Positions 10,685-51,675 are shown, counted from the stretch's first letter. The stretch is DNA of 64,000 nucleotides from Candidatus Latescibacterota bacterium (GCA_964291625.2 OZ220089.1:1856001-1920000), one strand, 5' to 3'. Translations and numbers: made by a program. The notes: generated by a model not told the origin, from the sequence alone.

Positions 10685-11350
10685 GTGATCTTCACTGAGG
10701 ACGTTCGTACTCTGCCAGCCTATGGAGTCGTCGAGGTTGCGCACTATCTGCGCATCCCATCTTCCACATTGAGGTCCTGGTTTCGCGGCGGCCGTGGCTT
10801 TGCGCCCATATTCCATCTTCCAGTGGGCAGCGACCAACTCTCCTTCACCAATCTGGTGGAAGCGCATGTTCTTGGTTTCATCCGGAAGAGACACAGGATC
10901 TCCTTCCAAAGGATGCGTCGCACCATTGACTATATGCAGGGGGCCTTTGCCTCCGGGCATCCCCTTGCCGAACTGGACATAGACACCGACGGCATCGATC
11001 TCTTCGTAACCCGGATTGCAGTATCGAGGAGTGGCCAGTTGGTTCTCCGAGAGTTGATCGAAGCAAGTCTGAGCCGAATTGACAAGGAGGATGGACTTGC
11101 CGTTCGGCTGTTTCCCCTCACCACCAGAGCGGCCGACTCACTGAGCGAACCACGCATTGTCGTAATCGATCCAAGCAAGTCCTTTGGTCGTCCATCCATC
11201 TTTGGAACCGGAATACCCACTGCTGTCATAGCCGAGCGTTTCGGGGCCGGCGAGTCCATCGAAGAGTTGTCCTATGACTATGGGCGAGAGCCGCTCGAAA
11301 TCCAGGCAGCCATCCGGTTCGAAGCCCAAGGCCTCCCCCTCGCCGCCTGA
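10685..11350 (+). CDS. DUF433-domain antitoxin (VapB45-like), HTH + DUF433
   Basis: N-terminal EVAHYLRIPSSTLRSW HTH, LSFTNLVEAHVL, and C-terminal IDPSKSFGRPSIFGTGIPT...AGESIEELSYDYG. Visibly lower GC than the flanks. Confidence 0.88.
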   Translation: MIFTEDVRTLPAYGVVEVAHYLRIPSSTLRSWFRGGRGFAPIFHLPVGSDQLSFTNLVEAHVLGFIRKRHRISFQRMRRTIDYMQGAFASGHPLAELDIDTDGIDLFVTRIAVSRSGQLVLRELIEASLSRIDKEDGLAVRLFPLTTRAADSLSEPRIVVIDPSKSFGRPSIFGTGIPTAVIAERFGAGESIEELSYDYGREPLEIQAAIRFEAQGLPLAA

Positions 11351-11738
11351 CCTACCTCCGCTCTTTCTGGATCACTCCATAGGAAGCAGGATTGTTGTAC
11401 AGGTACTTCGAGATGAAGGGGTTGTGGTGCATACACTCGAGGAGCATTTCGACCCCGCCGCGGCTGACGAGAAGTGGATCGCTGAAGTTGGAGAACGCGG
11501 TTGGATTGTGATCACAAAGGATCGAAGGATCAGGTACAGGCAGCATGAGAGGATGGCCGTCAAGAACGCAGGAGTGGCATTGTTCGTACTGATCAGCAGC
11601 AATCAGCGCGGAGAGAGCATGGCCGCTGCACTGGCAAAGGCCGTTCCCCGACTTGGGCGTTTCCTCGCTGCCCACGATAGGCCGTTTATCGCCAAAGTGT
11701 ACCGAGATGGGACGCTGGCCCTGGACTGCAAGCTGTGA
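11274..11738 (+). CDS. PIN-like domain toxin (VapC45-like)
   Basis: LFLDHSIG, ADEKWI and GWIVITKDRRIRYR; overlaps the antitoxin 3' end. Start may be 11274 or 11280. Confidence 0.85.
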   Translation: MTMGESRSKSRQPSGSKPKASPSPPDLPPLFLDHSIGSRIVVQVLRDEGVVVHTLEEHFDPAAADEKWIAEVGERGWIVITKDRRIRYRQHERMAVKNAGVALFVLISSNQRGESMAAALAKAVPRLGRFLAAHDRPFIAKVYRDGTLALDCKL

Positions 11739-11873
11739 GAGTACCGCTCCACCGGGCGCATCTACGGCACTACCGGCGCCAGCGGGAGCTTGTCGTCAAT
11801 GGGGACCCTGCGTACCTTGCGCCGTTCCCCCTTCGCGACGGCAGCGGACCTCCACCGGAGCGCGTAACCGCAC

Positions 11874-35374: not shown

Positions 35375-35932
35375 ATGCCGTCGTCCAGAACACCCTGCCG
35401 TCGTGGCCCTCGAGCCCTGACAGCCGCAGCGATCGCCGCCGTACTCGCAACGACGGCATGCGACCGCGGCCTCGAGGCCGAGCCGCCCCTCACCGGCATC
35501 GCCGGCACCGTGACCTTTCTGGGGGAGTGGCCGGAGGAGATCGGCGAGGTGGCGGTCGCCGTGTACCGCGATCTGCCCGAGGAGCCGGCGGACCTCTTCG
35601 GGCTCAGCGGCACCGATCAAAACGTTCCCCTCGGCAGCCGCAGCTACGACTACTTCGTGCCCATCCAGAGGGAAGGGACATACCGCTGGATCATCGTCGC
35701 CTGGCGGCGGCCGGAGGCCTTCTGGGACTTCACCTCCCTCCTCGGGTGCTATCACGCCGAGGGCGATTCGCTTCCCGGGGCGGTCGATGTCTCTCCCGGC
35801 CTCGTCACCAGCGGCATCGATCTGACCATCGACCTCGGCGTGATCGCCGATCCTCCCGAGCTCGGCTCCACCCCCTGCACGGCGGTGCTGCCCCAGAGCC
35901 TGATCGAGGCGGCCCAGGCGGGACAGGAGTGA
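35375..35932 (+). CDS. Hypothetical lipoprotein
   Basis: Hydrophobic signal ending LATTAC; coupled to the downstream receptor (TGATG). Confidence 0.7.
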   Translation: MPSSRTPCRRGPRALTAAAIAAVLATTACDRGLEAEPPLTGIAGTVTFLGEWPEEIGEVAVAVYRDLPEEPADLFGLSGTDQNVPLGSRSYDYFVPIQREGTYRWIIVAWRRPEAFWDFTSLLGCYHAEGDSLPGAVDVSPGLVTSGIDLTIDLGVIADPPELGSTPCTAVLPQSLIEAAQAGQE

Positions 35933-38211
35933 TGGCGGCCCGTCCGTTCCTCCTGGCGCTGCTGGCAGGCGGCCTGCTCTCGTCCGCCTCCGCGGCCCCG
36001 GCGGCCGGCGCCGGGATCAGCGGCCGGATCGCGGCGGCCGGCGACAGCTCCGCCCTGGCCGGGGCGAGTCTCTACCTGAAGAAGAGCGGACAGGGGGTCC
36101 TCGCCGGGAAGGGAGGCCGCTTCCGATTCGCGGTGGAGCCGGGGTCGGAGCTGCTCGTCGTCTCCTTCCTCGGCTATGGCACCCGCACGGTTCCCGTCGA
36201 GGTCGGGGAGGGGGAGTCCCTCGATCTCGGAGTCCTGCTCCTGGAGGAGTCCGCGGTGGAGCTGCCCGGAGTGGTGGTCACGGCGACCCGCAGGCCGCAG
36301 CTGTTCTCCGAAGCGCCGATCAGCATGTCGGTGACCGACCGGCGCGAGCTGACCGGCTTCAACTCCTTCAGCCTGTCGGGGCCCCTGCGCCATCTGCCCG
36401 GTGTCAGCCAGGTGGGCAGCCAGGTCAGCATCCGCGGCTCCAGCGGGTACAGCCGCGGCACCGGCAGCCGCGTGCTCCTGCTCTTCGACGGCGTCCCCGC
36501 CCTCTCGGCCGACCAGGCCGACATCAAGTGGGACATCATCCCCGTCACCGAGGTGGAGCGGGTCGAGCTGATCAAGGGGGCCGGCTCGGCCCTCTACGGT
36601 ACCGGGGCCCTCGGCGGCGTCATCAACGTCATCACCCGCTCGCCGTCGGAGCTTCCGGAGACCCGCTTCCGCCTCGTGAGCGGCCTCTACGACCAGCCGG
36701 CCCACCCGTCCTGGGAGTGGCGGGACCTCATGTACCTCGGCGGCGTCGACCTCAGCCACTCCCGCACGACGGCCGCGGGCGGCTACCTCGTCTCCGCGGG
36801 ACACAAGCGCCGGTCGGGGTACCGCGAGAACAACGAGGCGACCCGCTACAACCTCTTCGCCAAGGGGACCCGCCGGCTCGGCCGGCACACCCGCTGGACC
36901 GGCCTGGCCAGCTGGGCCCACGACGACCACGGGGTCTTCCTGCAGTGGAAGGACCGCGCCACGCCGCTGCTGGTGCCGGAGGGCGACCGCGGCGCGGCCA
37001 CCGTCTCGTGGAAGCTCAACCTCAACACCGAGGTGACCCACCTACTGAACCCCGGGACGAATCTCACCTGGCGCGGGTTCTACTTCCGCACCGACTTCGA
37101 CAACACCCGCGCCGCCGGGGGCCTGGCGTCGGCGGGACACAAGATCGGCACCGAGACGCAGCTCGACCTCGGGGAGCGCCTCGGCAGCCGCGGAGTCATC
37201 GTCGGCGCCACCGGGATCTACGACCTGGCGCGGTCGCCGGCCGACTTCCTCGGGCAGCGGACCGTGCTCAACACGGCGCTCTACGCCCAGAACGTGGTGG
37301 ACCTCCGGGACCTGGAGCTCACCCTCGGACTGCGCGCCGACCTCCATCGCCGCGGCGCCGGAGAAGCCGCGCCGGCCGGCGGCCCGTGTGGGTCGGCGGC
37401 GGGAAGCGACGGAATCGCGGCGCACTCGGAGGCCCAGTTCAGCCCCCAGATCGGGTTGTCATGGAAGGCGGCCCCGGGCGCCTTCCGGCTCTCGGCCGGC
37501 CGCGGCTTCAGGGCCCCCTCGGTCACCGAGATCCACGTCCAGGCCGACGCTTCGGGAATCCTGGTCTGTCCGAACCCCGATCTCGCCTCGGAGAGCAGCT
37601 GGTCGTACGAGGCGGGGATCCGGCGGGTCCTCGGCGGCGCGCTCGCCGTCGACGCCGCCCTGTTCTGGAACGAGTTCGAAGGGCTGATCGAGGCCCGGCC
37701 CGATCCGACCTCCTCGGTCGTCCCGAGGGCCAGCTTCCGCAACATCTCCAGGGCGCGCATTCGCGGACTCGAGCTGGAGCAGCAGCTGGCCCTTCCCCTC
37801 GGGGCGCTGTGGAAGGCCTCCTACACCTACGTCGATGCCGAGGAGTTCCTCGCGGAAGGGGTTCCGCTGCCGCCCTACTGTCACGACGACCTGAGCCCCG
37901 GGGATACGGCGCCCCTGCCGTACCGATCCCGCCACGCCGTCACGACCAGCCTGGGAATGGCGAGGGGGCACGGCCGCGGCGGGGTGACCTTCCGCTACAC
38001 GAGCCGCTTCGACAGGGTGTCAGGGCTGTTCGCGGAGTGTGGGCGGGACCACCTGCCCGTCTACCTCGTCGACGCCTTCGTCGAACGCCGAATCGGCGCG
38101 GCGACGCTGACTCTTCGCGTCGACAACCTGCTGCGCTACCACTACATCCTGTCGGAGCGCGAGATACGCCCCCTGCGGCGGGTCACGCTGGCGCTGTCGG
38201 GGACGCTGTAG
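35932..38211 (+). CDS. TonB-dependent receptor
   Basis: Signal peptide, VVVTATR TonB-box-like motif, RVELIKGAGSALYGTGALGGVINVIT, GFRAPS and VDNLLRYHY. Confidence 0.92.
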   Translation: MAARPFLLALLAGGLLSSASAAPAAGAGISGRIAAAGDSSALAGASLYLKKSGQGVLAGKGGRFRFAVEPGSELLVVSFLGYGTRTVPVEVGEGESLDLGVLLLEESAVELPGVVVTATRRPQLFSEAPISMSVTDRRELTGFNSFSLSGPLRHLPGVSQVGSQVSIRGSSGYSRGTGSRVLLLFDGVPALSADQADIKWDIIPVTEVERVELIKGAGSALYGTGALGGVINVITRSPSELPETRFRLVSGLYDQPAHPSWEWRDLMYLGGVDLSHSRTTAAGGYLVSAGHKRRSGYRENNEATRYNLFAKGTRRLGRHTRWTGLASWAHDDHGVFLQWKDRATPLLVPEGDRGAATVSWKLNLNTEVTHLLNPGTNLTWRGFYFRTDFDNTRAAGGLASAGHKIGTETQLDLGERLGSRGVIVGATGIYDLARSPADFLGQRTVLNTALYAQNVVDLRDLELTLGLRADLHRRGAGEAAPAGGPCGSAAGSDGIAAHSEAQFSPQIGLSWKAAPGAFRLSAGRGFRAPSVTEIHVQADASGILVCPNPDLASESSWSYEAGIRRVLGGALAVDAALFWNEFEGLIEARPDPTSSVVPRASFRNISRARIRGLELEQQLALPLGALWKASYTYVDAEEFLAEGVPLPPYCHDDLSPGDTAPLPYRSRHAVTTSLGMARGHGRGGVTFRYTSRFDRVSGLFAECGRDHLPVYLVDAFVERRIGAATLTLRVDNLLRYHYILSEREIRPLRRVTLALSGTL

Positions 38212-41127: not shown

Positions 41128-41544
41128 CTACTCCGCGTCGTGCCTGCAGGACCGGGACCGGCAGAGCATGTAGTTGCGGGTGTGGGCGACGACGAGCAGG
41201 GCTGCGGACCCCAGGGTCGCAAGCCGCTCCCCCAGCTCTCCAACCAGGTCGTGCAATACCAGGCCCGATAGGACAATGCCCGTGAGACCTAGCGCTCCGA
41301 AGAGGACCATCCATCGGTCCCTGTGCCGCCAGCAGCCAAGGGAGAAAGCCAGCACGGCAGAAGGCACAAGGAACCACAACATCAGGCGATGGAAGGCTTC
41401 ATCCTCAAGGAATACAGTGGGCACCGCGGCCCCGAGAACGAGAAGGGTGGGCATGGCGATACAGTGGACAGCGCAGACACTCGCGCCCAGCATTCCGATG
41501 CCGTCCGCTACGGTCCTGACATCCAGTGCAAGGGTTCGCTTCAT
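41128..41544 (-). CDS. MerC-domain membrane protein
   Basis: DGIGMLGASVCAVHCIAMP, EAFH and LVVAHTRN; RBS GAGGA. Confidence 0.85.
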   Translation of the reverse strand: MKRTLALDVRTVADGIGMLGASVCAVHCIAMPTLLVLGAAVPTVFLEDEAFHRLMLWFLVPSAVLAFSLGCWRHRDRWMVLFGALGLTGIVLSGLVLHDLVGELGERLATLGSAALLVVAHTRNYMLCRSRSCRHDAE

Positions 41545-41697
41545 CCGATCTTCCTCTTGGCCAGGTGGGATATCCGACTCGAAGGTATGTGCAGGTGTAG
41601 AGAGCCGCAAAGGTGGACCCCGACGATCGATCCGGTTCCGCAGAGGCCTTCGCCTTGGCCTACACGAATACTGAGGGCGAGACGCCGAATCGCCTTG

Positions 41698-41864
41698 ATG
41701 CTGTTCCTCCCAGGCGTGGACAACGGCACCAAGCGTGTCGAGCAGAGAATAGAGCGGATGCTGCTCATCAGTGCCGACTTCATCGATCAGGCCGTTGAGC
41801 CGATCCAGGGCCAAGTCGTATTCCTCTCGTTCTCAATCTTGAGCAACGCGCTCACTCGCTTCCA
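41698..41864 (-). pseudogene. Frameshifted, truncated HigA-type HTH antitoxin (N-terminal fragment)
   Basis: WKRVSALLKIENE / EYDLALDRLNGLIDEVGTDEQHPLYSLLDTLGAVVHAWEEQH, split by a 1-nt shift near 41825. No HTH follows. Confidence 0.65.
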
Positions 41865-44325: not shown

Positions 44326-45908
44326 CTACTCGCCTGGGGCGTCAGGGTCGCCCCCGGCTGAAGCGGAGCCGCCGCGGGCCTCTAGCAGCTCCATGATGCC
44401 CCACGACGCCTGCAGGATCACCTCCCAGGTGACGGAATCGGCCACGAGGTCGTCCAGGCTGACTCCCCCGTGGTGGTAGACCGCCATCCCCCCCCAGAGG
44501 GCGTCGTCCCGCAGACTCTGCACGTGAACGGCGATCTTCCACGCCCTCTTGATCTCCTCAACTCGCCATATCAGCCGCCACTCCGGTGGATCGGTACCGG
44601 CCAGGACGCCGGCGGCCTCCATCTTCTTCTTCATGTAGGTGTCGACCAGGTGCCTGGAGAGGGGGCCGAGCCATGGCGCGTGCGTCTCGGGATTCCACCC
44701 CGGATCCAGGTCCTCCACCAGAAGCGCAGCGCGGCATGACCTTCCGGCGGCACGGGGGCGTGCTCGAAGACCGAGATCCGCACCAGCTCCGGCTCCCAGG
44801 AGACGGGCTCCGGCACCTCGAACCGGTCCGCCGTCAGGCCCGTGTTCAACTCCGTGTGCCACTGGTATCCGGTGATCGTGGGGGTTCCCCTGCACGGAAG
44901 GACGGGTTCGGTAACCCAGACCACGAAGGGGGTCAACACCCCCCGGCTTTCCCGGTACTCCCGGTAGGTGGTCCTGCGGCAACCCTCCACCTCGGCGTAC
45001 AGCAGGCCGTTTTCCTGGTCGAAGTAGGCGAGACGCTGGCGGCCGAACTTGGTGTCGATGACGCGCACCGCCTCCAGGGTCGGGAAGTGCAACTCCCGCC
45101 GGCCCACGTACTCCGCGATCACGCCGTCGCCGCGGAACCGCGTGAGGAAGTCCCAGCGCTCGGCGCTGTGCCTCTCGTCCCGGGGGGGAATGAGAAGTCC
45201 ATGGTACAGGTACCAGCTCTGCCGGCCGTCGTATCCGCGCGCCAGCCGGGGCCGGAGATCCAGGCGGTAGCGCTGGCCGCGTAGGTAGGATCTGACCTCG
45301 ATCCCCTCCCAGATACTGCGCCGGCCGTTCCACTGCTCGACCTCGATGCGCTTGTCCCGGATCGCCTGCAGCCGCTCGAGACCCCCCATGGCCTCGATGG
45401 CGCGGGCGATGATCTCCTGGGCCCGGCTGCGCCGCCGGCCGGCCTCGGAAGTGATGTCGGCCAGGGGCAGCACCCGGATGCGGCGGCCGTGCAGCTCCAC
45501 GAGCTTGCGGCGGTAGAGGTCGGTGAGGGCGTCTTCGTAGGAGAGGGTGTCCCGCAGAATGTCGGGTCCCGCCCCGGAATCGTCCTCCAGCCCCGGTTCC
45601 GGGGCGAGGTCCTCCGGCACGACCGCCGGCGGGGCCGCCGCCACCTCGGGCAGGGGCGCCTCCATCATCAGCTCGGCCAGGCGGAGCTGCTCCATCACCA
45701 CCTCGGGCACCGAGGCGCGCGGCTCGGGCTGGAAGCGTTGCGCCTCCAGGGCCGGGGCCAGCTCGAAGCGCGCCGGGCGCAGCACCCTCAGCACCCTCAG
45801 CACCCGCTCTGCCGCCCAGCGCTGGTAGGCCCACAGGAAGAGCATGTGCACCACCAGCGACGCCAGCAGGCACAGCAGCACGCGGCGGTTGCGGAAGAAG
45901 CGGATCAT
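44326..45908 (-). pseudogene. Array paralog 1 (TonB-like anchor / LolA-like / variable C-terminus); frameshifted near 44724
   Basis: Collinear with paralogs 2-4. One G is missing at ~44724 (GAAGCG versus GAAGGCG in paralog 3), and the C-terminal domain continues in another frame to the stop at 44326. Confidence 0.8.
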
Positions 45909-46121
45909 CGTCCGGCGTCCATGGTCCCGCGCCCCGTGGCCCCCGCGTTCCGGGCCGGAACTTCCTGCCCCTCCGGAGTCGCGCTGTCGGTGGTGCCTTC
46001 TGCATACGCAACGGACCGCGGCCGGGGCTCTGCAAACCGCGCCCGGGATCACGGCCGTCTTCCGGCCCACATGTCGCGGAGGCCCTGTCGCTACACGGCC
46101 CCAGGGCGCAACTTTGCCGGC

Positions 46122-46709
46122 ATGAACAACACCAACCTGCAGGCGATCCTCTTCGACATGGACGGCACCCTGACCGTCCCCCACATCGACTGGAAATCCC
46201 TGCGCGCCCGCGTCGGCGTGCCCGAGGGCGCCGGCATCATGGAGTACATCTACGGGCTGCCGCCGGACGAGGCCGGGCGCGCCGAGGGCATGGTCCTCGA
46301 GACCGAGTTGGAGGCGGCCGCGGCAGCGGTCCCCAACGAGGGGCTTGCGGAGCTCTTCGAGGGACTGGACCGCTCGCCCCTGATGCGCGCCCTGATCACC
46401 AACAACCACCGCGAGGCCATGGAGCGAGTGGTGGCGGCCTTCGGGCTGAGCTTCGACGTGATGCTCTGCCGGGAGGACGGACTGCTGAAGCCGGCCCCGG
46501 ACCTGCTGTGGCTGGCCCTGGAGCGGCTCGGCGTGGCCTCCGCCGACGCGGTCTTCGTCGGCGACGGGCGCTACGACCGCATGGCCTCGGAGGCGGCGGG
46601 CGTCCCCTACGTGCATCTGGACAACCACGGGGACGGCGAGGACGGGGACGGCCTGGTGATCTACTCGCTGCCGGAGCTGCTGCCGGCGCTCGGAGTCGAC
46701 GCCGGCTGA
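46122..46709 (+). CDS. HAD-family hydrolase
   Basis: ILFDMDGTL, LITNN, KPAPD and VFVGDGRYD. Confidence 0.92.
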   Translation: MNNTNLQAILFDMDGTLTVPHIDWKSLRARVGVPEGAGIMEYIYGLPPDEAGRAEGMVLETELEAAAAAVPNEGLAELFEGLDRSPLMRALITNNHREAMERVVAAFGLSFDVMLCREDGLLKPAPDLLWLALERLGVASADAVFVGDGRYDRMASEAAGVPYVHLDNHGDGEDGDGLVIYSLPELLPALGVDAG

Positions 46710-48250
46710 GCCGCGGCGGTGCGGGCATCGAGGAGCTCCTTGATGCCCGCCGATGCCCGCGAGATCCCCTCGAAGGTCAGGTGATCGGCCGCCTGGTCGT
46801 CGATGGCAGCGCCGCGGACCCTCCAGCGGTCCTTCACCTCCCCTTCCCACAGGCCCTCGTCAGTCAGGCTCTGCACTCGCACGGCGAACACGATCGTGGC
46901 CACCGGCGGGCCCCCATCCAGCCCGGGCACCACCCAGAACCCCTCCACCCACCACGTCAGCCGCCACTCGGGTTCGGCCTCTGCCAGGACGCCGGACGCC
47001 TCCAGCTTCCTCTTCATGTAGGTCCGGAGCAAGTTGGTTGCGATGGGGTCGATCCAGGCCCGGCCCTCGAGATTGACCCCCGGGTCCAGTTCCTCCAACC
47101 GAAGGCTCAGCGCGGGGGGACCTCCCGGCGGCACGGGGGCGTGCTCGAAGACCACCATTCGCACCGCCTCCGGCTCCCAGGAGACGGGTTCCGGCACCTC
47201 GAAGAGGTCCGCCGTCAGGCCGGCGTTCAGCTCCGTGTGCCAGCGGTAGCGCTTGACCCCGACCAGGACCTCGAAGGGCGTCAACACCTCTCCGGTCTCC
47301 CGGTACTGCCTGTAGGTGGTCGTACGGCCGCCCTCCACCTCGGCGTGAAGCAGGCCGTCGTAGGGGTCGAAGTAGGCGAGACGCTGGCGGCCGAACTTCG
47401 TGTCGATGACGCGCACCGCCTCCAGAGGCCGGTATTGCATCCGCCGGCGGCCCACGTACTCGACGATCACGCCGTCGCCGCGGAACCGCGACAGGAAGTC
47501 CCAGCGCTCGGCGTTGTAGCTCTCGTCCCGGGGGGGCAGGAGCAGTCCGTAGCGCAGGTACCAGCTCTGCCGGCCGTCGTGTCCCCGGGCCACACCAGGA
47601 GCGGTGTCGACGCGGTAGCGCCGGCCGCGCAGGTAGGAGCGCACCCCGGCGGGGTACCAGCGTTGGTCCTTTCCGCTCCATACCTCGGCCCGAACCCTCT
47701 TGTCCCGGATCGCCTGCAACCTCTCGAGCCCGCCCATGGCCTCGATGGCGCGGCCGATGATCTCCCGGGCCCGGCGGCGCCGACGGCCGGCCTCGGAGGT
47801 GGCGTCGGCCAGGGGCAGCACCCGGATGCGGCGCCCGTGCAGCTCCACGAGCTTGCGCCGGTAGAGGTCGGTGAGGGCGCTGTCGTAGGAGAGGGTGTCC
47901 CCCGGCAGGACGGCGGGTCCCAGCCCGGGATCCGCCTCCAGGCCCGGCTGCGGCGCCAGGCCTTCCAGCCCCACCGATGGCACCGCCGCCGCCGCCTCGG
48001 GCAGGGGTGCCTCCATCATCAGTTCGGCGAGGCGGAGCTGCTCCATCACCACCTCGGGCACCGTGGCGCGCGGCGCCGGCTCGAAGCGTTGCGGCTCCAG
48101 CGACGGGGCCAGCTCGAACCGCGCCGGGCGCAGCACCCGCAGCACTCGTTCGGCCGCCCAACGCTGGTAGGCCCACAGGAAGAGCATGTGCACCGCCAGC
48201 GACGCCAGCAGGCACAGGACCACGCGGCGGTTGCGGAGGGAGCGGATCAT
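46661..48250 (-). CDS. Array paralog 2 (529 aa)
   Basis: Intact ORF; N-terminal TM with SLAVH, then IIGRAIEAMGGLERLQAIRD. Confidence 0.85.
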   Translation of the reverse strand: MIRSLRNRRVVLCLLASLAVHMLFLWAYQRWAAERVLRVLRPARFELAPSLEPQRFEPAPRATVPEVVMEQLRLAELMMEAPLPEAAAAVPSVGLEGLAPQPGLEADPGLGPAVLPGDTLSYDSALTDLYRRKLVELHGRRIRVLPLADATSEAGRRRRRAREIIGRAIEAMGGLERLQAIRDKRVRAEVWSGKDQRWYPAGVRSYLRGRRYRVDTAPGVARGHDGRQSWYLRYGLLLPPRDESYNAERWDFLSRFRGDGVIVEYVGRRRMQYRPLEAVRVIDTKFGRQRLAYFDPYDGLLHAEVEGGRTTTYRQYRETGEVLTPFEVLVGVKRYRWHTELNAGLTADLFEVPEPVSWEPEAVRMVVFEHAPVPPGGPPALSLRLEELDPGVNLEGRAWIDPIATNLLRTYMKRKLEASGVLAEAEPEWRLTWWVEGFWVVPGLDGGPPVATIVFAVRVQSLTDEGLWEGEVKDRWRVRGAAIDDQAADHLTFEGISRASAGIKELLDARTAAAQPASTPSAGSSSGSE

Positions 48251-48278
48251 CGTGGTCCGGGGACGGAGGCCGCGTGAT

Positions 48279-49916
48279 CTACTCGCTGCCGGACCTGCTG
48301 CCGGCGCTTGGAGTCGACGCTGGCTGAGCCGCCGCGTCCCGGGCGTCGAGGATCGCCTTGATGCCTGCCGATGCCAGCAGGATCACCTGGGTGGTGAGGT
48401 TGTCGGCGCTGCCGCCGTTGATCGGCCGGCCGAGAACCTTCCATTGGTCCCGCACCTCCCCCTCCCACAGGCCTTCACCACGCAGGCTCTGCAGGCTCAC
48501 CGAGATCACGATGGAGGCAACGGGCGGCCTTCGATTCGGTCTGACCCAGAACTCCTCCACCCGCCAGGTCAACCGCCACTCCGGGGGTTCGGTGCCTGCC
48601 AGGACGCCGGCCGCCTGCAGCTTCCGCTTCATGTAGGTGTCGAGCAGGTGCATTTCCATGGACTCGAGCCACGGGCGGGGTTCGCGTCGCCGCCCCCGGG
48701 GCTGAAGCGGATCGTCCTGCGGGCGGTGCACCTGGCCAAGGTCCTGCACCTGAAGGCGCAGCGCGGCGGGACCTCCCGGCGGCACGGGGGCGTACTCGAA
48801 GACCAGGGTCCGCACCAGCTCCGGCTCCCAGGAGATCTGCTCCGGCACATCGAACCGGTCGGCCGTCAGGCCCGTGTTCAACTCCGTGTGCCAGCGGTAC
48901 CGGACATCCCTCGGCGCGTCGACCCGGACCTCGAAGGGCGTCAGTACGCCCCCGGTCTCACGGTACTGCCTGTAGGTGGTCGTGCGGCCGCCCTCCACCT
49001 CGGCGTACAGGAGGCTGTCGCCGACATCGAAATAGGCGAGACGGTGGCGGCCGAAGGCGGTGTCGATGACACGCACCGCCTCCAGGGTCCGGAACCTCAT
49101 CTCCCGCCGGCCCAGGTACTCCACGATCACGCCGTCTCCGCGAAACCGCGTCAGGAAGTCCCAGCGCTCGGCGGCGTACCTCTCGTCCCGCGGGGGCAGG
49201 AGGAGTCCGTAACGCAGGTACCAACTCCGCATGCCGTCGTACCCGCGCGCCATATCGGGGCTGATGTCGACGCGGTAGCGCTGACCGCGCAGGTACGAGC
49301 GCACGCTGCCCGGCTCCCAGACCCGGCGCCGTGCGTTCCACCTCTCGACCCGGACCTGCTTGTCCCGGATCGCCTGCAGCCGCTCGAGCCCGCCCATGGC
49401 CTCGATGGCGCGGTCGATGATCTGTCGGGCCCGGCGGCGCCGACGGCCGGCCTCGGAGGTGGCGTCGGCCAGGGGCAACACCCGGATGCGGCGCCCGTGC
49501 AGCTCCACCAGCTTGCGGCGATAGAGGTCGGTGAGGGCACTGTCGTAGGACAGGGTGTCCCCCGGCAGGACGGCGGGTCCCAGCCCCGGATCGGCCTCCA
49601 GGCCCGGCTGCGGCGCCAGGCCCTCCAGCCCCACCGATGGCACCGCCACCGCGTCCTCGGGCAGGGGCGCCTCCATCATCAGCTCGGCCAGACGGAGCTG
49701 CTCCATCACGACATCGGGCACCGTGGCGCGGGGCGCCGGCTCGAAGCGTTGCGGCTCCAGCGACGGGGCCAGCTCGAAGCGCGCCGGGCGCAGCACCCGC
49801 AGCACGCGTTCGGCCGCCCAGCGCTGGTAGGCCCACAGGAAGAGCATGTGCACCGCCAGCGAAGCGAGCAGGCACAGGAGCACGCGGCGATTGCGGAGGG
49901 AGCGGCTCATGCCCAT
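48279..49916 (-). CDS. Array paralog 3 (545 aa)
   Basis: Intact ORF with the same architecture. Confidence 0.85.
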   Translation of the reverse strand: MGMSRSLRNRRVLLCLLASLAVHMLFLWAYQRWAAERVLRVLRPARFELAPSLEPQRFEPAPRATVPDVVMEQLRLAELMMEAPLPEDAVAVPSVGLEGLAPQPGLEADPGLGPAVLPGDTLSYDSALTDLYRRKLVELHGRRIRVLPLADATSEAGRRRRRARQIIDRAIEAMGGLERLQAIRDKQVRVERWNARRRVWEPGSVRSYLRGQRYRVDISPDMARGYDGMRSWYLRYGLLLPPRDERYAAERWDFLTRFRGDGVIVEYLGRREMRFRTLEAVRVIDTAFGRHRLAYFDVGDSLLYAEVEGGRTTTYRQYRETGGVLTPFEVRVDAPRDVRYRWHTELNTGLTADRFDVPEQISWEPELVRTLVFEYAPVPPGGPAALRLQVQDLGQVHRPQDDPLQPRGRRREPRPWLESMEMHLLDTYMKRKLQAAGVLAGTEPPEWRLTWRVEEFWVRPNRRPPVASIVISVSLQSLRGEGLWEGEVRDQWKVLGRPINGGSADNLTTQVILLASAGIKAILDARDAAAQPASTPSAGSRSGSE

Positions 49917-49998
49917 CCTGCGGTTGATGACCTCCAGGCCGGCTCGTGTTCCAATCTCAGAGCCGTCGTCAAGACCACGGCACGGGCCGCCCCGTGAT

Positions 49999-51675
49999 CT
50001 ACTCGACGCCGGAGCTGCTGCCGCTCGGAGTCGACGCTGGCTGAGCGGCGGCGGCGCGGGCGTCGAGAAGCTGCTTCATGCCCACCGAGCCTTCAGGATC
50101 ACTTGCCAGGTGACGGCATCGGCCACGAGGTCGTCGATGGAGGTGGCCTTGAGGAGCCATTCGTCTTCCTCTGCCTCGGGAGTGGGGGACGATCCATCGG
50201 TGGTCCACAAACCCCTCCCACCAGTCTCCGTCTCGCAGGCTCTGGACGCGAACAGCGATCTTCAGCGTCGCTATCTCGATAGTATGGCCCTCCCCGATCG
50301 GCGGCGCCTCGTCATCGCGAAGCTGCTTTACTCTCCGGAACCCTTCCACTCGCCAGGCCAACCGCCACTCCGGGGGATCGGCGCCCGCCAGGACACCACC
50401 CGCCTGCAGTTTCCTCTTCATGTAGGTGTCCAACAGGTACGCATCAGGAGGCATGAGCCAGGGCCCTCCCCCGGCTATCAGTCCCGGCCTCGCATTGTCT
50501 GGCGAGCGCTCCCCCTGGGTCAGGTTCTCCACCTGAAGGCGCAGCCCGGCCGCTCCTCCCGGCGGCACGGGGACGTGCTCGAAGACCGCGGTCCGTACCG
50601 ACTCCAGCTCCCAGGAAGCCTCCTCCGGCACGTCGAACCGAGCCGCGGCCAGGCCCGTGTTCAGCTCCGTATGCCAGCGGTACCCGCCGCGGACTTCGAA
50701 GGGAGTCAGCACTCCCTGGGTCTGCCGGTACTCCCGATACGTGGTCGTGCGGCCTCCCTCTACCTCGGCGTACAGCAGGCTGTCTTCCATGCCGAAGTAG
50801 GCCAACCGCTGGCGGCCGAACTTCGTGTCGATGACGCGCACCGCTGCCAGGGTCCGGAACTGCATCTCCCGGTGGCCCACGAACTCCACGACCACGCCAT
50901 CCCCGCGGAACCTCGACAGGAAGTCCCAGCGCTCGGCGTTGTACCTCTCGTCCCGAGGAGGCAGGAGCAGCCCGTAGTACAGGTACCAGCTCCGATGCCC
51001 GTCATGCCCGCGCGCCATGTTGGGCCCGATGTCCAGGCGGTAGCGCTCACCGCGCAAGTAGGAGCGCGTGCCGACCGACTTCCAGATCTGGCGTTCGCCA
51101 TCCCACCTCTCGACGCGGATCCGCTTGTCCCGAATCGCCTGCAGCCGCTCGAGCCCGCCCATGGCCTTGATGGCGCGGTCGATGATCTCCCGGGCTCGGG
51201 CGCGCCGACGGCCGGCCTCGGAGGTGGCGTCGGCCAGGGGCAGCACCCGGATGCGGCGCCCCTGCAGCTCCACGAGCTTGCGGCGGTAGAGGTCGGCGAG
51301 GGCGCTGTCGTAGGAGAGGGTGTCCCCCGGCAGAACGGCGGGTCCCAGCCCCGGATCGGCCTCCAGCCCCGGCGCCGGCGCCAGGCCTTCCAGCCCCACC
51401 GATGGCACCGCCGCCGCGTCCTCGGGCAGGGGCGCCTCCATCAGCAGCTCGGCCAGGCGGAGCTGCTCCATCACGACATCCGGCACCGTGGCGCGCGGCG
51501 CCGGCTCGAAGCGTTGCGGCTCCAGCGACGGGGCCAGCTCGAAGCGCGCCGGGCGCAGCACCCGCAGCACGGGCTGGGCCGCCCAGCGCTGGTAGGCCCA
51601 CAGGAAGAGCATGTGCACCGCCAGCGACGCCAGCAGGCAGAGCACCACGCGGCGGTTGCGGAGGGAGCGGATCAC
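49999..51675 (-). CDS. Array paralog 4 (558 aa), with two compensating indels near the 3' end
   Basis: Open ORF, but between ~50088 and ~50186 the family-like sequence lies in another frame. Confidence 0.82.
   Translation of the reverse strand: MIRSLRNRRVVLCLLASLAVHMLFLWAYQRWAAQPVLRVLRPARFELAPSLEPQRFEPAPRATVPDVVMEQLRLAELLMEAPLPEDAAAVPSVGLEGLAPAPGLEADPGLGPAVLPGDTLSYDSALADLYRRKLVELQGRRIRVLPLADATSEAGRRRARAREIIDRAIKAMGGLERLQAIRDKRIRVERWDGERQIWKSVGTRSYLRGERYRLDIGPNMARGHDGHRSWYLYYGLLLPPRDERYNAERWDFLSRFRGDGVVVEFVGHREMQFRTLAAVRVIDTKFGRQRLAYFGMEDSLLYAEVEGGRTTTYREYRQTQGVLTPFEVRGGYRWHTELNTGLAAARFDVPEEASWELESVRTAVFEHVPVPPGGAAGLRLQVENLTQGERSPDNARPGLIAGGGPWLMPPDAYLLDTYMKRKLQAGGVLAGADPPEWRLAWRVEGFRRVKQLRDDEAPPIGEGHTIEIATLKIAVRVQSLRDGDWWEGFVDHRWIVPHSRGRGRRMAPQGHLHRRPRGRCRHLASDPEGSVGMKQLLDARAAAAQPASTPSGSSSGVE

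Follow-up and report, generated by a model that had tools for sequence, protein, structure and literature searches.

A tandem, partly decayed array of membrane-anchored proteins with predicted LolA-like and LptE-like domains in a Latescibacterota bacterium

Positions 44326-51675 of a 64,000-nucleotide stretch of DNA from Candidatus Latescibacterota bacterium (GCA_964291625.2, OZ220089.1:1856001-1920000; hereafter the window) contain four homologous genes, P1 to P4, all on the minus strand, as seen in the open reading frame (ORF) listing, in DNA alignment and in a search of the genome itself. We suggest that here a lineage-restricted family of bitopic inner-membrane proteins, whose head is predicted to join a LolA-superfamily domain to an LptE-like one, has expanded in tandem and in part decayed. 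For this explanation as a whole, in which we infer from the anchor helix that the proteins dock on a proton-driven motor, we put the probability at about 0.5. The family has no name, and its architecture of TonB-like anchor, LolA-like domain and LptE-like domain is new, not being described in the literature that we searched, in which no paper joins a TonB-like or SHLS anchor to a LolA-like domain.

Throughout, G000 denotes the present genome (5.9 Mb in two contigs, ~70% G+C), G0xx related genomes, L0xx loci, P00xx database proteins and X1-X4 public runs. The array and the gene that interrupts it are laid out as follows:

P4, 49999-51675, minus strand: a 558-residue ORF with the transmembrane Ser-x3-His helix, linker, LolA-like and LptE-like domains, and a compensated +1/-1 frameshift in the C-terminal helix region.
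Out-of-frame stretch in P4, 50088-50184, minus strand: bounded by two compensating indels.
P3, 48279-49916, minus strand: intact, 545 residues (the database form has 543 and starts two codons later); ortholog P0009.
P2, 46661-48250, minus strand: intact, 529 residues, the copy used for modelling; transmembrane helix at about residues 10-31 with Ser17 and His21, LRPARFE at 40-46, linker to ~145, predicted LolA-like half-barrel at ~155-357, predicted LptE/PqiC-like domain at ~369-511, then the tail AAQPASTPSAGSSSGSE.
HAD-family hydrolase gene, 46122-46709, plus strand: between P1 and P2, outside the paralog family (Pfam HAD_2, 4.7e-16).
P1, 44326-45908, minus strand: in two frames, with a 1-nt deletion near 44722; a distinct clade.

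The first-pass annotation of this DNA had described four collinear minus-strand paralogs; four homologous genes are indeed there, but P1 lies in two frames, P4 is frameshifted, and the HAD gene intervenes on the opposite strand, setting P1 apart from P2-P4. Spacers of 82 nt and 28 nt separate P4 from P3 and P3 from P2. Scans for consensus promoters and for terminators returned 0, as did Rfam.

Every copy begins with a basic patch, RNRR, and a single hydrophobic helix, LLCLLASLAVHMLFLWAY (LVVH in P1), followed by a Pro/Glu-rich stretch and then by the blocks RAIEAMGGLERLQAIRDK, AERWDFL.RFRGDGV and WHTELN. All motifs quoted in the first-pass annotation (basic patch, SxxxH helix, Pro/Glu linker and conserved blocks) are present, and its four TPF...WHTELN variants are exactly those of P1, P2, P3 and P4. 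In each protein about 10 basic cytoplasmic residues lead into a transmembrane helix with an invariant Ser-x3-His, the segment LRPxRF(E) and a VxMExL helix, and a Pro/Glu-rich spacer of ~100 residues is followed by a predicted LolA-superfamily half-barrel and a predicted LptE/PqiC/PelC-like alpha/beta domain. The protein would span the periplasm from the inner membrane, and its two lipid- or lipoprotein-handling folds may bind a hydrophobic envelope component or an outer-membrane partner.

The anchor is well conserved. Ser17 and His21 are each at least 90% conserved in 26 close homologs, and SxxxH is kept in 33 of 39 distant representatives (those whose profile match starts at position <=25), the others being two with AxxxH, three truncated at the N-terminus and one that the filter missed but that reads SLLLH. 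In close and distant members alike LRPxRF(E) follows 12-17 residues after the helix, then a second RF and then the (V/Q)MExL helix; residues ~40-145 are rich in Pro, Glu and Ala and are modelled at low confidence, with two short helices. A genome-wide regular-expression scan gave 16 hits, 10 of which are proteins with an N-terminal RR and an SxxxH helix: the four array genes, a distant paralog in locus L006, four DUF4159 proteins, and L025, which has only its N-terminal 56 residues in common with the family (probability 85%). Inspection by eye ruled out both a Tat signal and a lipobox at the N-terminus: the hydrophobic stretch is 19 residues long, and the sole Cys of the N-terminal region (VVLC), set against the lipobox consensus, is preceded by Leu (-1) and lacks conservation in the wider family.

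The head was modelled with AlphaFold2 (AF2). From an alignment of 26 close homologs only the C-terminal domain came out well, the middle domain having a predicted local distance difference test score (pLDDT) of 56.6; from a 96-sequence alignment that included distant representatives, P2 residues 145-529 reached a pLDDT of 95 and a predicted template-modelling score of 0.86. Fold searches with VIA-align, against 48,161 chains, and with Foldseek gave the same two domains:

Domain 1, P2 residues ~155-357: predicted LolA-superfamily open barrel; VIA-align Z of 14.9 to DUF1329 (4z48), 14.5 to 3bk5, 13.0 to 3buu, 12.7 to P. gingivalis LolA3, 11.0 to LolB and 7-9 to classical LolA.
Domain 2, P2 residues ~369-511: predicted alpha/beta domain; VIA-align Z of 10.9 to DUF330 (2iqi), 10.5 to CT253, 10.4 to CsgG, 10.0 to TraT, 8.8 to PelC, 8.8 to LptE and 8.3 to PqiC.

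The alignment of 4z48 with domain 1 covers 188 residues at a root-mean-square deviation of 4.1, and Foldseek matched domain 2 to LptE/PqiC/PelC/CsgG-type structures at E 2e-5 to 1e-3. The predicted open antiparallel barrel of domain 1 has 13 strands and the helices 244-248 and 252-257; in the model the superfamily's most conserved motif, AERWDF, sits in these two short helices inside the barrel, at what we take to be the position of the plug in LolA. Sub-threshold LolA-clan Pfam matches occur on 13 of 21 weak, ~240-residue profile hits, with none of the 19 stronger family members having any Pfam match and remote relatives reaching at most 29.7 bits against a cut-off of 30 for the LolA-clan hidden Markov model. 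These predictions support a LolA fold for the middle domain and an LptE/PqiC/PelC/CsgG-like fold for the C-terminal domain, much as had been proposed from the sequence alone.

No Pfam or NCBIfam model matches P2, P3 or P4 at E<=1, in agreement with the earlier impression that this is no named family, and the ESM Atlas gave no usable match. By word-indexed search 35 proteins were retrieved, all but one of them at 63-100% identity and the last at 43%, annotated at source as 'hypothetical protein' and once as 'TolB-like protein'; a profile search of 1.84 billion representatives gave 163 matches at E<=1e-3, 82 at <=1e-10 and 27 at <=1e-30. The named records among the matches are metagenome-assembled genomes (MAGs) labelled Gemmatimonadaceae or Candidatus Latescibacterota. 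Matches occur in 14 of 41 related genomes, all inside the window's own taxonomic family (13 of its 24 other genomes, as against none of the 16 from three other families of its class). Clear full-length matches number four here, two in G007 and one each in G006, G002, G004, G001 and G010; upstream of its full copy G004 also has a 111-residue N-terminal fragment (L010 3831-4163), and a copy in G014 (C8:14613-15995) contains two in-frame stops, one TAG and one TAA. The family is lineage-restricted, and of the genomes searched only this one has the four-copy array. Two sponge metagenome runs and a marine one yielded contigs at 95-100% identity.

More distant members keep the same plan in part. The 416-residue paralog in L006 (670-1920, plus strand; G000:C1:1575336-1576592) has the same kind of helix and an ERWNF motif (hhalign probability 98.6%); it carries ERWNFVHRFLGEGV with its SxxxH helix, is single-copy in several genomes of the genus and adjoins a leishmanolysin-like gene. 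A distant subfamily has the same anchor and LolA-like part, with a conserved CCYC(K/S/Q)EP end replacing the tail of the LptE-like domain; its members are L033 9248-10930 (plus), L035 191-2089 (plus), P0051, P0054, P0058, P0059 and P0061. Ankyrin-repeat and leucine-rich-repeat proteins lie near distant members on metagenome contigs (L033 14368-16077, minus; L035 2115-2738, plus).

In the explanation that we favour, the anchor would dock, as in TonB and TolA, on an ExbB/ExbD-type stator encoded elsewhere. The genome has eight MotA/ExbB-family matches and only two TonB_C matches, and at least two of the stator loci have no neighbouring transducer. A Pfam scan of 40 ORFs in the eight motor loci gave the following:

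L043: TPR, ExbB and a TonB_C protein.
Canonical TonB, L043 4835-5518, minus strand (G000:C1:4131837-4132520): TonB_C at 7.9e-15, near ExbB.
L048: giant TPR protein, ExbB, ExbD and DUF4159 (helix with His).
L045: DUF5683, DUF4159, ExbB, ExbD, ExbD and TPR.
L046: DUF5683, DUF4159, ExbB and TPR.
L042, 4883-6013, minus strand: ExbB and ExbD, with no TonB_C, DUF4159 or other transducer-like neighbour.
L047, 4904-6444, minus strand: ExbB, ExbD and ExbD, with no TonB_C, DUF4159 or other transducer-like neighbour.

The neighbours in L042 and L047 are a sulfatase, a GFO oxidoreductase and an ABC permease. In L049 (5098-7476, minus strand) a weak MotA-like protein (6.3e-10) stands beside vWA-like, FHA, kinase-like and phosphatase-like ORFs.

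A further, indirect link runs through the DUF4159 proteins. Their genes lie inside three of the eight MotA/ExbB loci (L048 3182-4522, minus; L045 3722-5296, plus; L046 8220-9461, minus), and four more SxxxH DUF4159 proteins (L022, L023, L024 and L026) are encoded elsewhere, three of them 9-22 kb from a MotA/ExbB match. In the metagenome locus L030 an SxxxH-anchored DUF4159 protein is encoded 60 nt downstream of a family member, and its first 73 residues align with the N-terminal module of the family (hhalign E 1.5e-5, probability 79%), and a pattern RFQ...EVQMEML is still visible in the DUF4159 protein of L048. The motor loci with DUF4159 also carry large TPR proteins and DUF5683.

Several results weigh against docking, or against the wider explanation. 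No ExbB, ExbD, TolQ or TolR lies near the array, and the nearest MotA_ExbB on the contig is at least 0.9 Mb away. MotA_ExbB, ExbD or TonB_C was found by Pfam in none of 59 ORFs from eight metagenome loci, six of which hold clear family members (L029, L030, L032, L033, L034 and L035); the 11 metagenome loci list 92 ORFs, those of L027 and L028 (duplicates of L029), of the short L031 and small or overlapping ones being left out. The canonical TonB of the genome has no His and no SxxxH in its transmembrane helix, leaving His-dependent docking putative for the lineage. The SHLS motif of E. coli TonB extends to His+7 and His+11, and this full spacing is not kept in the family, which has an invariant Tyr28 and Ala32 at these positions. 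A profile of the N-terminal 70 residues, uninformative on conservation as 15 of its sequences were added for showing SxxxH, matched no TonB or TolA chain among PDB sequences, only a designed membrane peptide at E 9. The DUF4159 alignment is weak for the motor-adjacent L048 protein (E 0.01, probability 4%) and for L026 (probability 12%). AF2 gives no strand at the LRPxRF segment (pLDDT <50); one report (PMC12204202) places a 'motor box', predicted to be a beta-strand, in the disordered region that follows the helix of other transducers. Two of the four copies are frame-disrupted; the ratio of nonsynonymous to synonymous substitution (dN/dS) in the C-terminal part, 0.5-1.0, fits relaxed constraint; and expression is hinted at weakly, by contigs of the RNA library X2 at 99-100% identity. 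We regard coupling to a proton-driven motor as reasonable but indirect, a little short of an even chance.

An alternative is a protein that involves no motor: a static, signal-anchored periplasmic binder or sensor like LolA or RseB, whose helix, in common with that of DUF4159 proteins, would be no more than a membrane anchor or an oligomerisation helix and whose Ser and His would make some other contact. The lack of motor synteny in the window and the six metagenome loci, the incomplete SHLS and the N-terminus without a sequence match to TonB or TolA all favour it, and RseB/MucB also pair a LolA-like with a small domain (Foldseek E 3.5e-7 over both, but with a template-modelling score of 0.2). 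Yet a near-universal His and LRPxRF across more than 30 clusters at <50% identity exceed what an anchor needs, and the same module stands on DUF4159 proteins that are motor-adjacent in this genome. We consider the static binder a serious but minority possibility. The motor-docking explanation, carried to its full extent, would describe a new class of transducer of the proton motive force: the helix would sit on 'orphan' ExbB/ExbD stators encoded elsewhere, and a LolA-like cavity with its LptE/PqiC-like dock would be pulled so that a lipid or lipoprotein is extracted, passed on or tethered at the outer membrane, these proteins and the SxxxH DUF4159 proteins serving as interchangeable heads for a few motors and the paralogs differing in target. 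In this extended form we think it rather unlikely.

The copies differ from one another increasingly towards the 3' end. The first ~540 nt have a mean identity of 84-96% and the framework beyond it ~80%, so that the near-identical framework first described holds for the former and not for the latter. Sliding identity over 60 nt drops from 0.8-0.96 to 0.17-0.4 at columns ~991-1021, ~1201-1261, ~1411-1441 and ~1531-1561, and indels cluster at four loop sites:

After P2 residue 331: 14 alignment columns inserted, at the tip of the last hairpin of the predicted barrel.
After P2 residue 393: 27 columns, in the inter-domain segment.
After P2 residue 442: 13 columns, in the beta1-beta2 loop of the C-terminal domain.
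After P2 residues 477/480: 12 and 7 columns, in the beta3-alpha2 loop.

The three sites assigned to the C-terminal domain should lie at the same end of it, as judged from its alpha-beta-beta-beta-alpha order rather than computed. Substitutions do not follow the indels: over residues 145-514 the 248 alignment columns in helices and strands have an entropy of 0.87 bits and the 122 in loops one of 0.90 (Mann-Whitney p=0.43). The interposed segments of the first-pass annotation, said to differ in sequence and length, are borne out as indels in four loops and not as loop-enriched substitution. Region-wide Nei-Gojobori estimates put dS at 0.10-0.33 in the 5' part, climbing to 0.46-1.03 in the 3' part; for the four copies of the window they are as follows, with the values of P4 inflated by its out-of-frame stretch:

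P2 codons 1-145: dN 0.02-0.12, dS 0.15-0.29.
LolA-like part, codons 186-325: dN 0.16-0.22, dS 0.35-0.61.
C-terminal domain, codons 401-515: dN 0.26-0.44, dS 0.46-1.03.

These loops had been read as antibody-like hypervariable segments on homogenised frameworks, under diversifying selection in a set of diversified binders. The concentration of indels at the four sites, the low DNA identity there, the expected common end of three of them and the homogenised 5' part speak for such a set. However, the loops are conserved between orthologs: P1 shares its loops with P0024, P3 with P0009 and P0007, and P2 with P0002, all from other assemblies. Entropy is equal in loops and secondary-structure elements, dN/dS in the most variable domain is below 1 in 35 of 36 pairs among nine genes (the exception being 0.46/0.44), two copies are broken, and one or two copies suffice in related genomes. 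An antibody-like hypervariable set is not supported, and we consider it improbable. A diversity-generating retroelement (DGR)-type mechanism was ruled out, the variation consisting of indels that orthologs inherit.

We suggest instead that the paralogs represent old lineages, set apart chiefly by indels in four surface loops, with segments swapped by recombination. In a tree of 27 proteins P2 and P0002 (99/100), P3 and P0009 (100/99) and P1 and P0024 (100/99) are sister pairs, and P4 is not resolved. Trees built from the DNA of three segments of nine genes contradict one another at high support. The tandem copies G007a and G007b are sisters in the 5' 555 nt (99) and only there, and the same segment groups P2, P3, P4 and G002 together. 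P2 is paired with G006 by the LolA part (99) and with G002 by the 3' part (100); the latter also places G007b with P1 and G004 (100). These conflicts indicate that the anchor and linker were homogenised within genomes and that segments of the head were exchanged between lineages. The copies are, on these trees, old recombining paralogs in which the 5' third was homogenised by gene conversion and the rest is mosaic, and the homogenised frameworks claimed at first pass are confined to that 5' part.

The HAD gene points to the history of the locus. It overlaps the 3' end of P2 in antisense by its last 49 nt, and the HAD C-terminus (...SLPELLPALGVDAG) has as its antisense the invariant low-complexity tail AAQPASTPSAGSSSGSE. 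P3 and P4 retain a remnant of the HAD tail (ORF 47977-48327, ending ...VIYSLPDLLPALGVDAG), which indicates that the duplication unit was the gene plus a few bases and that P2 is at the ancestral place. The antisense overlap accounts for the conserved tail, and the HAD gene marks the ancestral locus. The same overlap is found in L029 (9599-11200, plus, and 11152-11742, minus), which keeps the neighbourhood: Fe-ADH, LarA-like and alanine-racemase-like genes flank it on one side, and on the other comes the overlapping HAD gene. Hence the locus is old and began with a single copy. In the window, a TonB-dependent receptor with a CarboxypepD_reg N-domain (35458-38211, plus) lies 8 kb from the array and is followed by a MerC-like protein (41128-41814, minus); the other flanks of the array are genes of sugar and acid metabolism (aldo/keto reductase, PhyH, Fe-ADH and a D-serine dehydratase-like gene).

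Two copies are damaged. In P1, CGCCTT has become CGCTT near 44722, and the C-terminal 140 residues lie in another frame; a relative's contig in X4 has the extra base behind 44723 that P1 lacks. In P4 a C-run near 50184 is one C too long and a base is missing at 50088, and between the two sites 33 residues are misread (HSRGRG...DPEGS); the other frame of this scrambled stretch reads PTPEAEEDEWLLKATSIDDLVADAVTWQVILKA, the sequence of the family, as in relatives. A contig of X3, 99% identical, has the base missing at 50088, and one of X2 (the RNA library), 100% identical, is without the extra base at 50184. Contigs of X1 equal the window exactly over both broken places (0 other letters, 0 gaps) and also bridge the P3/P4 and HAD/P2 junctions; X1 contains the largest share of the words of the stretch (0.89) and is possibly the source sample, hence no independent support. 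Since X1 matches exactly over the broken sites, the indels are features of this strain's reads and not typing errors of the window; the contigs of X2-X4 span no more than 17-21 of the 30 bins of the stretch. We conclude that P1 is a damaged gene, probably a pseudogene, that P4 is probably damaged, and that P2 and P3 are likely the only functional copies. That the array is nothing but redundant duplicates in decay around one working copy, their variation having no function, would fit these two frame disruptions, the stops in G014, the fragment in G004, the single copy in most relatives and the high C-terminal dN/dS, but is very improbable given that P1-, P2- and P3-type lineages are each intact in other assemblies, that other contigs carry two different types together (P0009 with P0024, and P0012 with P0017) and that ortholog pairs have dN/dS of 0.3-0.75.

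If stator docking is real, a lipid- or lipoprotein-handling head would join the short list of heads pulled by proton-driven envelope motors, currently TonB_C, TolA-III and, by computation only, vWA, and transducers could be encoded far from their motors, where synteny-based surveys would miss them. Regardless of the motor, the family shows cleanly how concerted evolution of an anchor and linker combines with modular shuffling of head domains. The host lineage is uncultured, with relatives turning up in sponge metagenomes, and the family alignment (A4) could yield a Pfam-type definition.

Compared with known systems, each part of the protein has a counterpart, in a different setting. RseB and MucB also place a small domain after a large LolA-like domain in one periplasmic protein; only the LolA-like part superposes, with a template-modelling score of ~0.2 over both domains, they are absent from the 50 best VIA-align rows, and RseB is soluble and encoded with rseA/rpoE. 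LptE, PqiC (DUF330), PelC and CsgG are N-terminally lipidated outer-membrane proteins, several of them ring-forming, whose alpha/beta sandwich resembles the C-terminal ~140 residues of our model (Z 8.3-10.9); here the predicted fold forms the C-terminal domain of a protein that is anchored in the inner membrane and has no lipobox. LolA, LolB and LolA-like proteins (DUF1329 4z48, 3bk5, NE2245 3buu and P. gingivalis LolA3 9tp6) share with the model an open beta-barrel with internal helices over ~185 residues (Z 11-14.9), at 8-10% identity and without a Pfam match here; they are soluble or lipidated, in contrast to the inner-membrane tether and fused second domain of this family.

The anchor invites comparison with transducers. 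TonB and TolA have the same bitopic topology, short basic cytoplasmic end, Ser-x3-His in the helix and Pro/Glu-rich periplasmic spacer; the present proteins have no TonB_C or TolA domain III in the head (Pfam, E<=1), have Tyr and Ala in place of the SHLS Leu and Ser, lie in no operon with a motor or TonB-dependent receptor and show no detectable sequence homology to them. The SxxxH DUF4159 proteins (L022, L023, L024, L026, L048 and the L030 neighbour) share the helix with His, the RF(E) segment and VxMExL; their head differs, and three DUF4159 genes lie within motor loci, as against none of the LolA-type family members examined. Transducers with an SHLS helix and a vWA head in place of that of TonB, a family syntenic with tolQ/tolR-like genes, are described in PMC12204202; as portrayed there they resemble our proteins in the Ser/His helix, in a disordered or proline-rich spacer with a conserved segment after the helix and in a globular head unlike that of TonB or TolA, the difference being that here the head is predicted to be LolA-like and LptE/PqiC-like and that the family, in the loci examined, lacks tolQ/tolR-like synteny. 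The vWA transducers reported there offer a precedent for alternative heads, though one with motor synteny.

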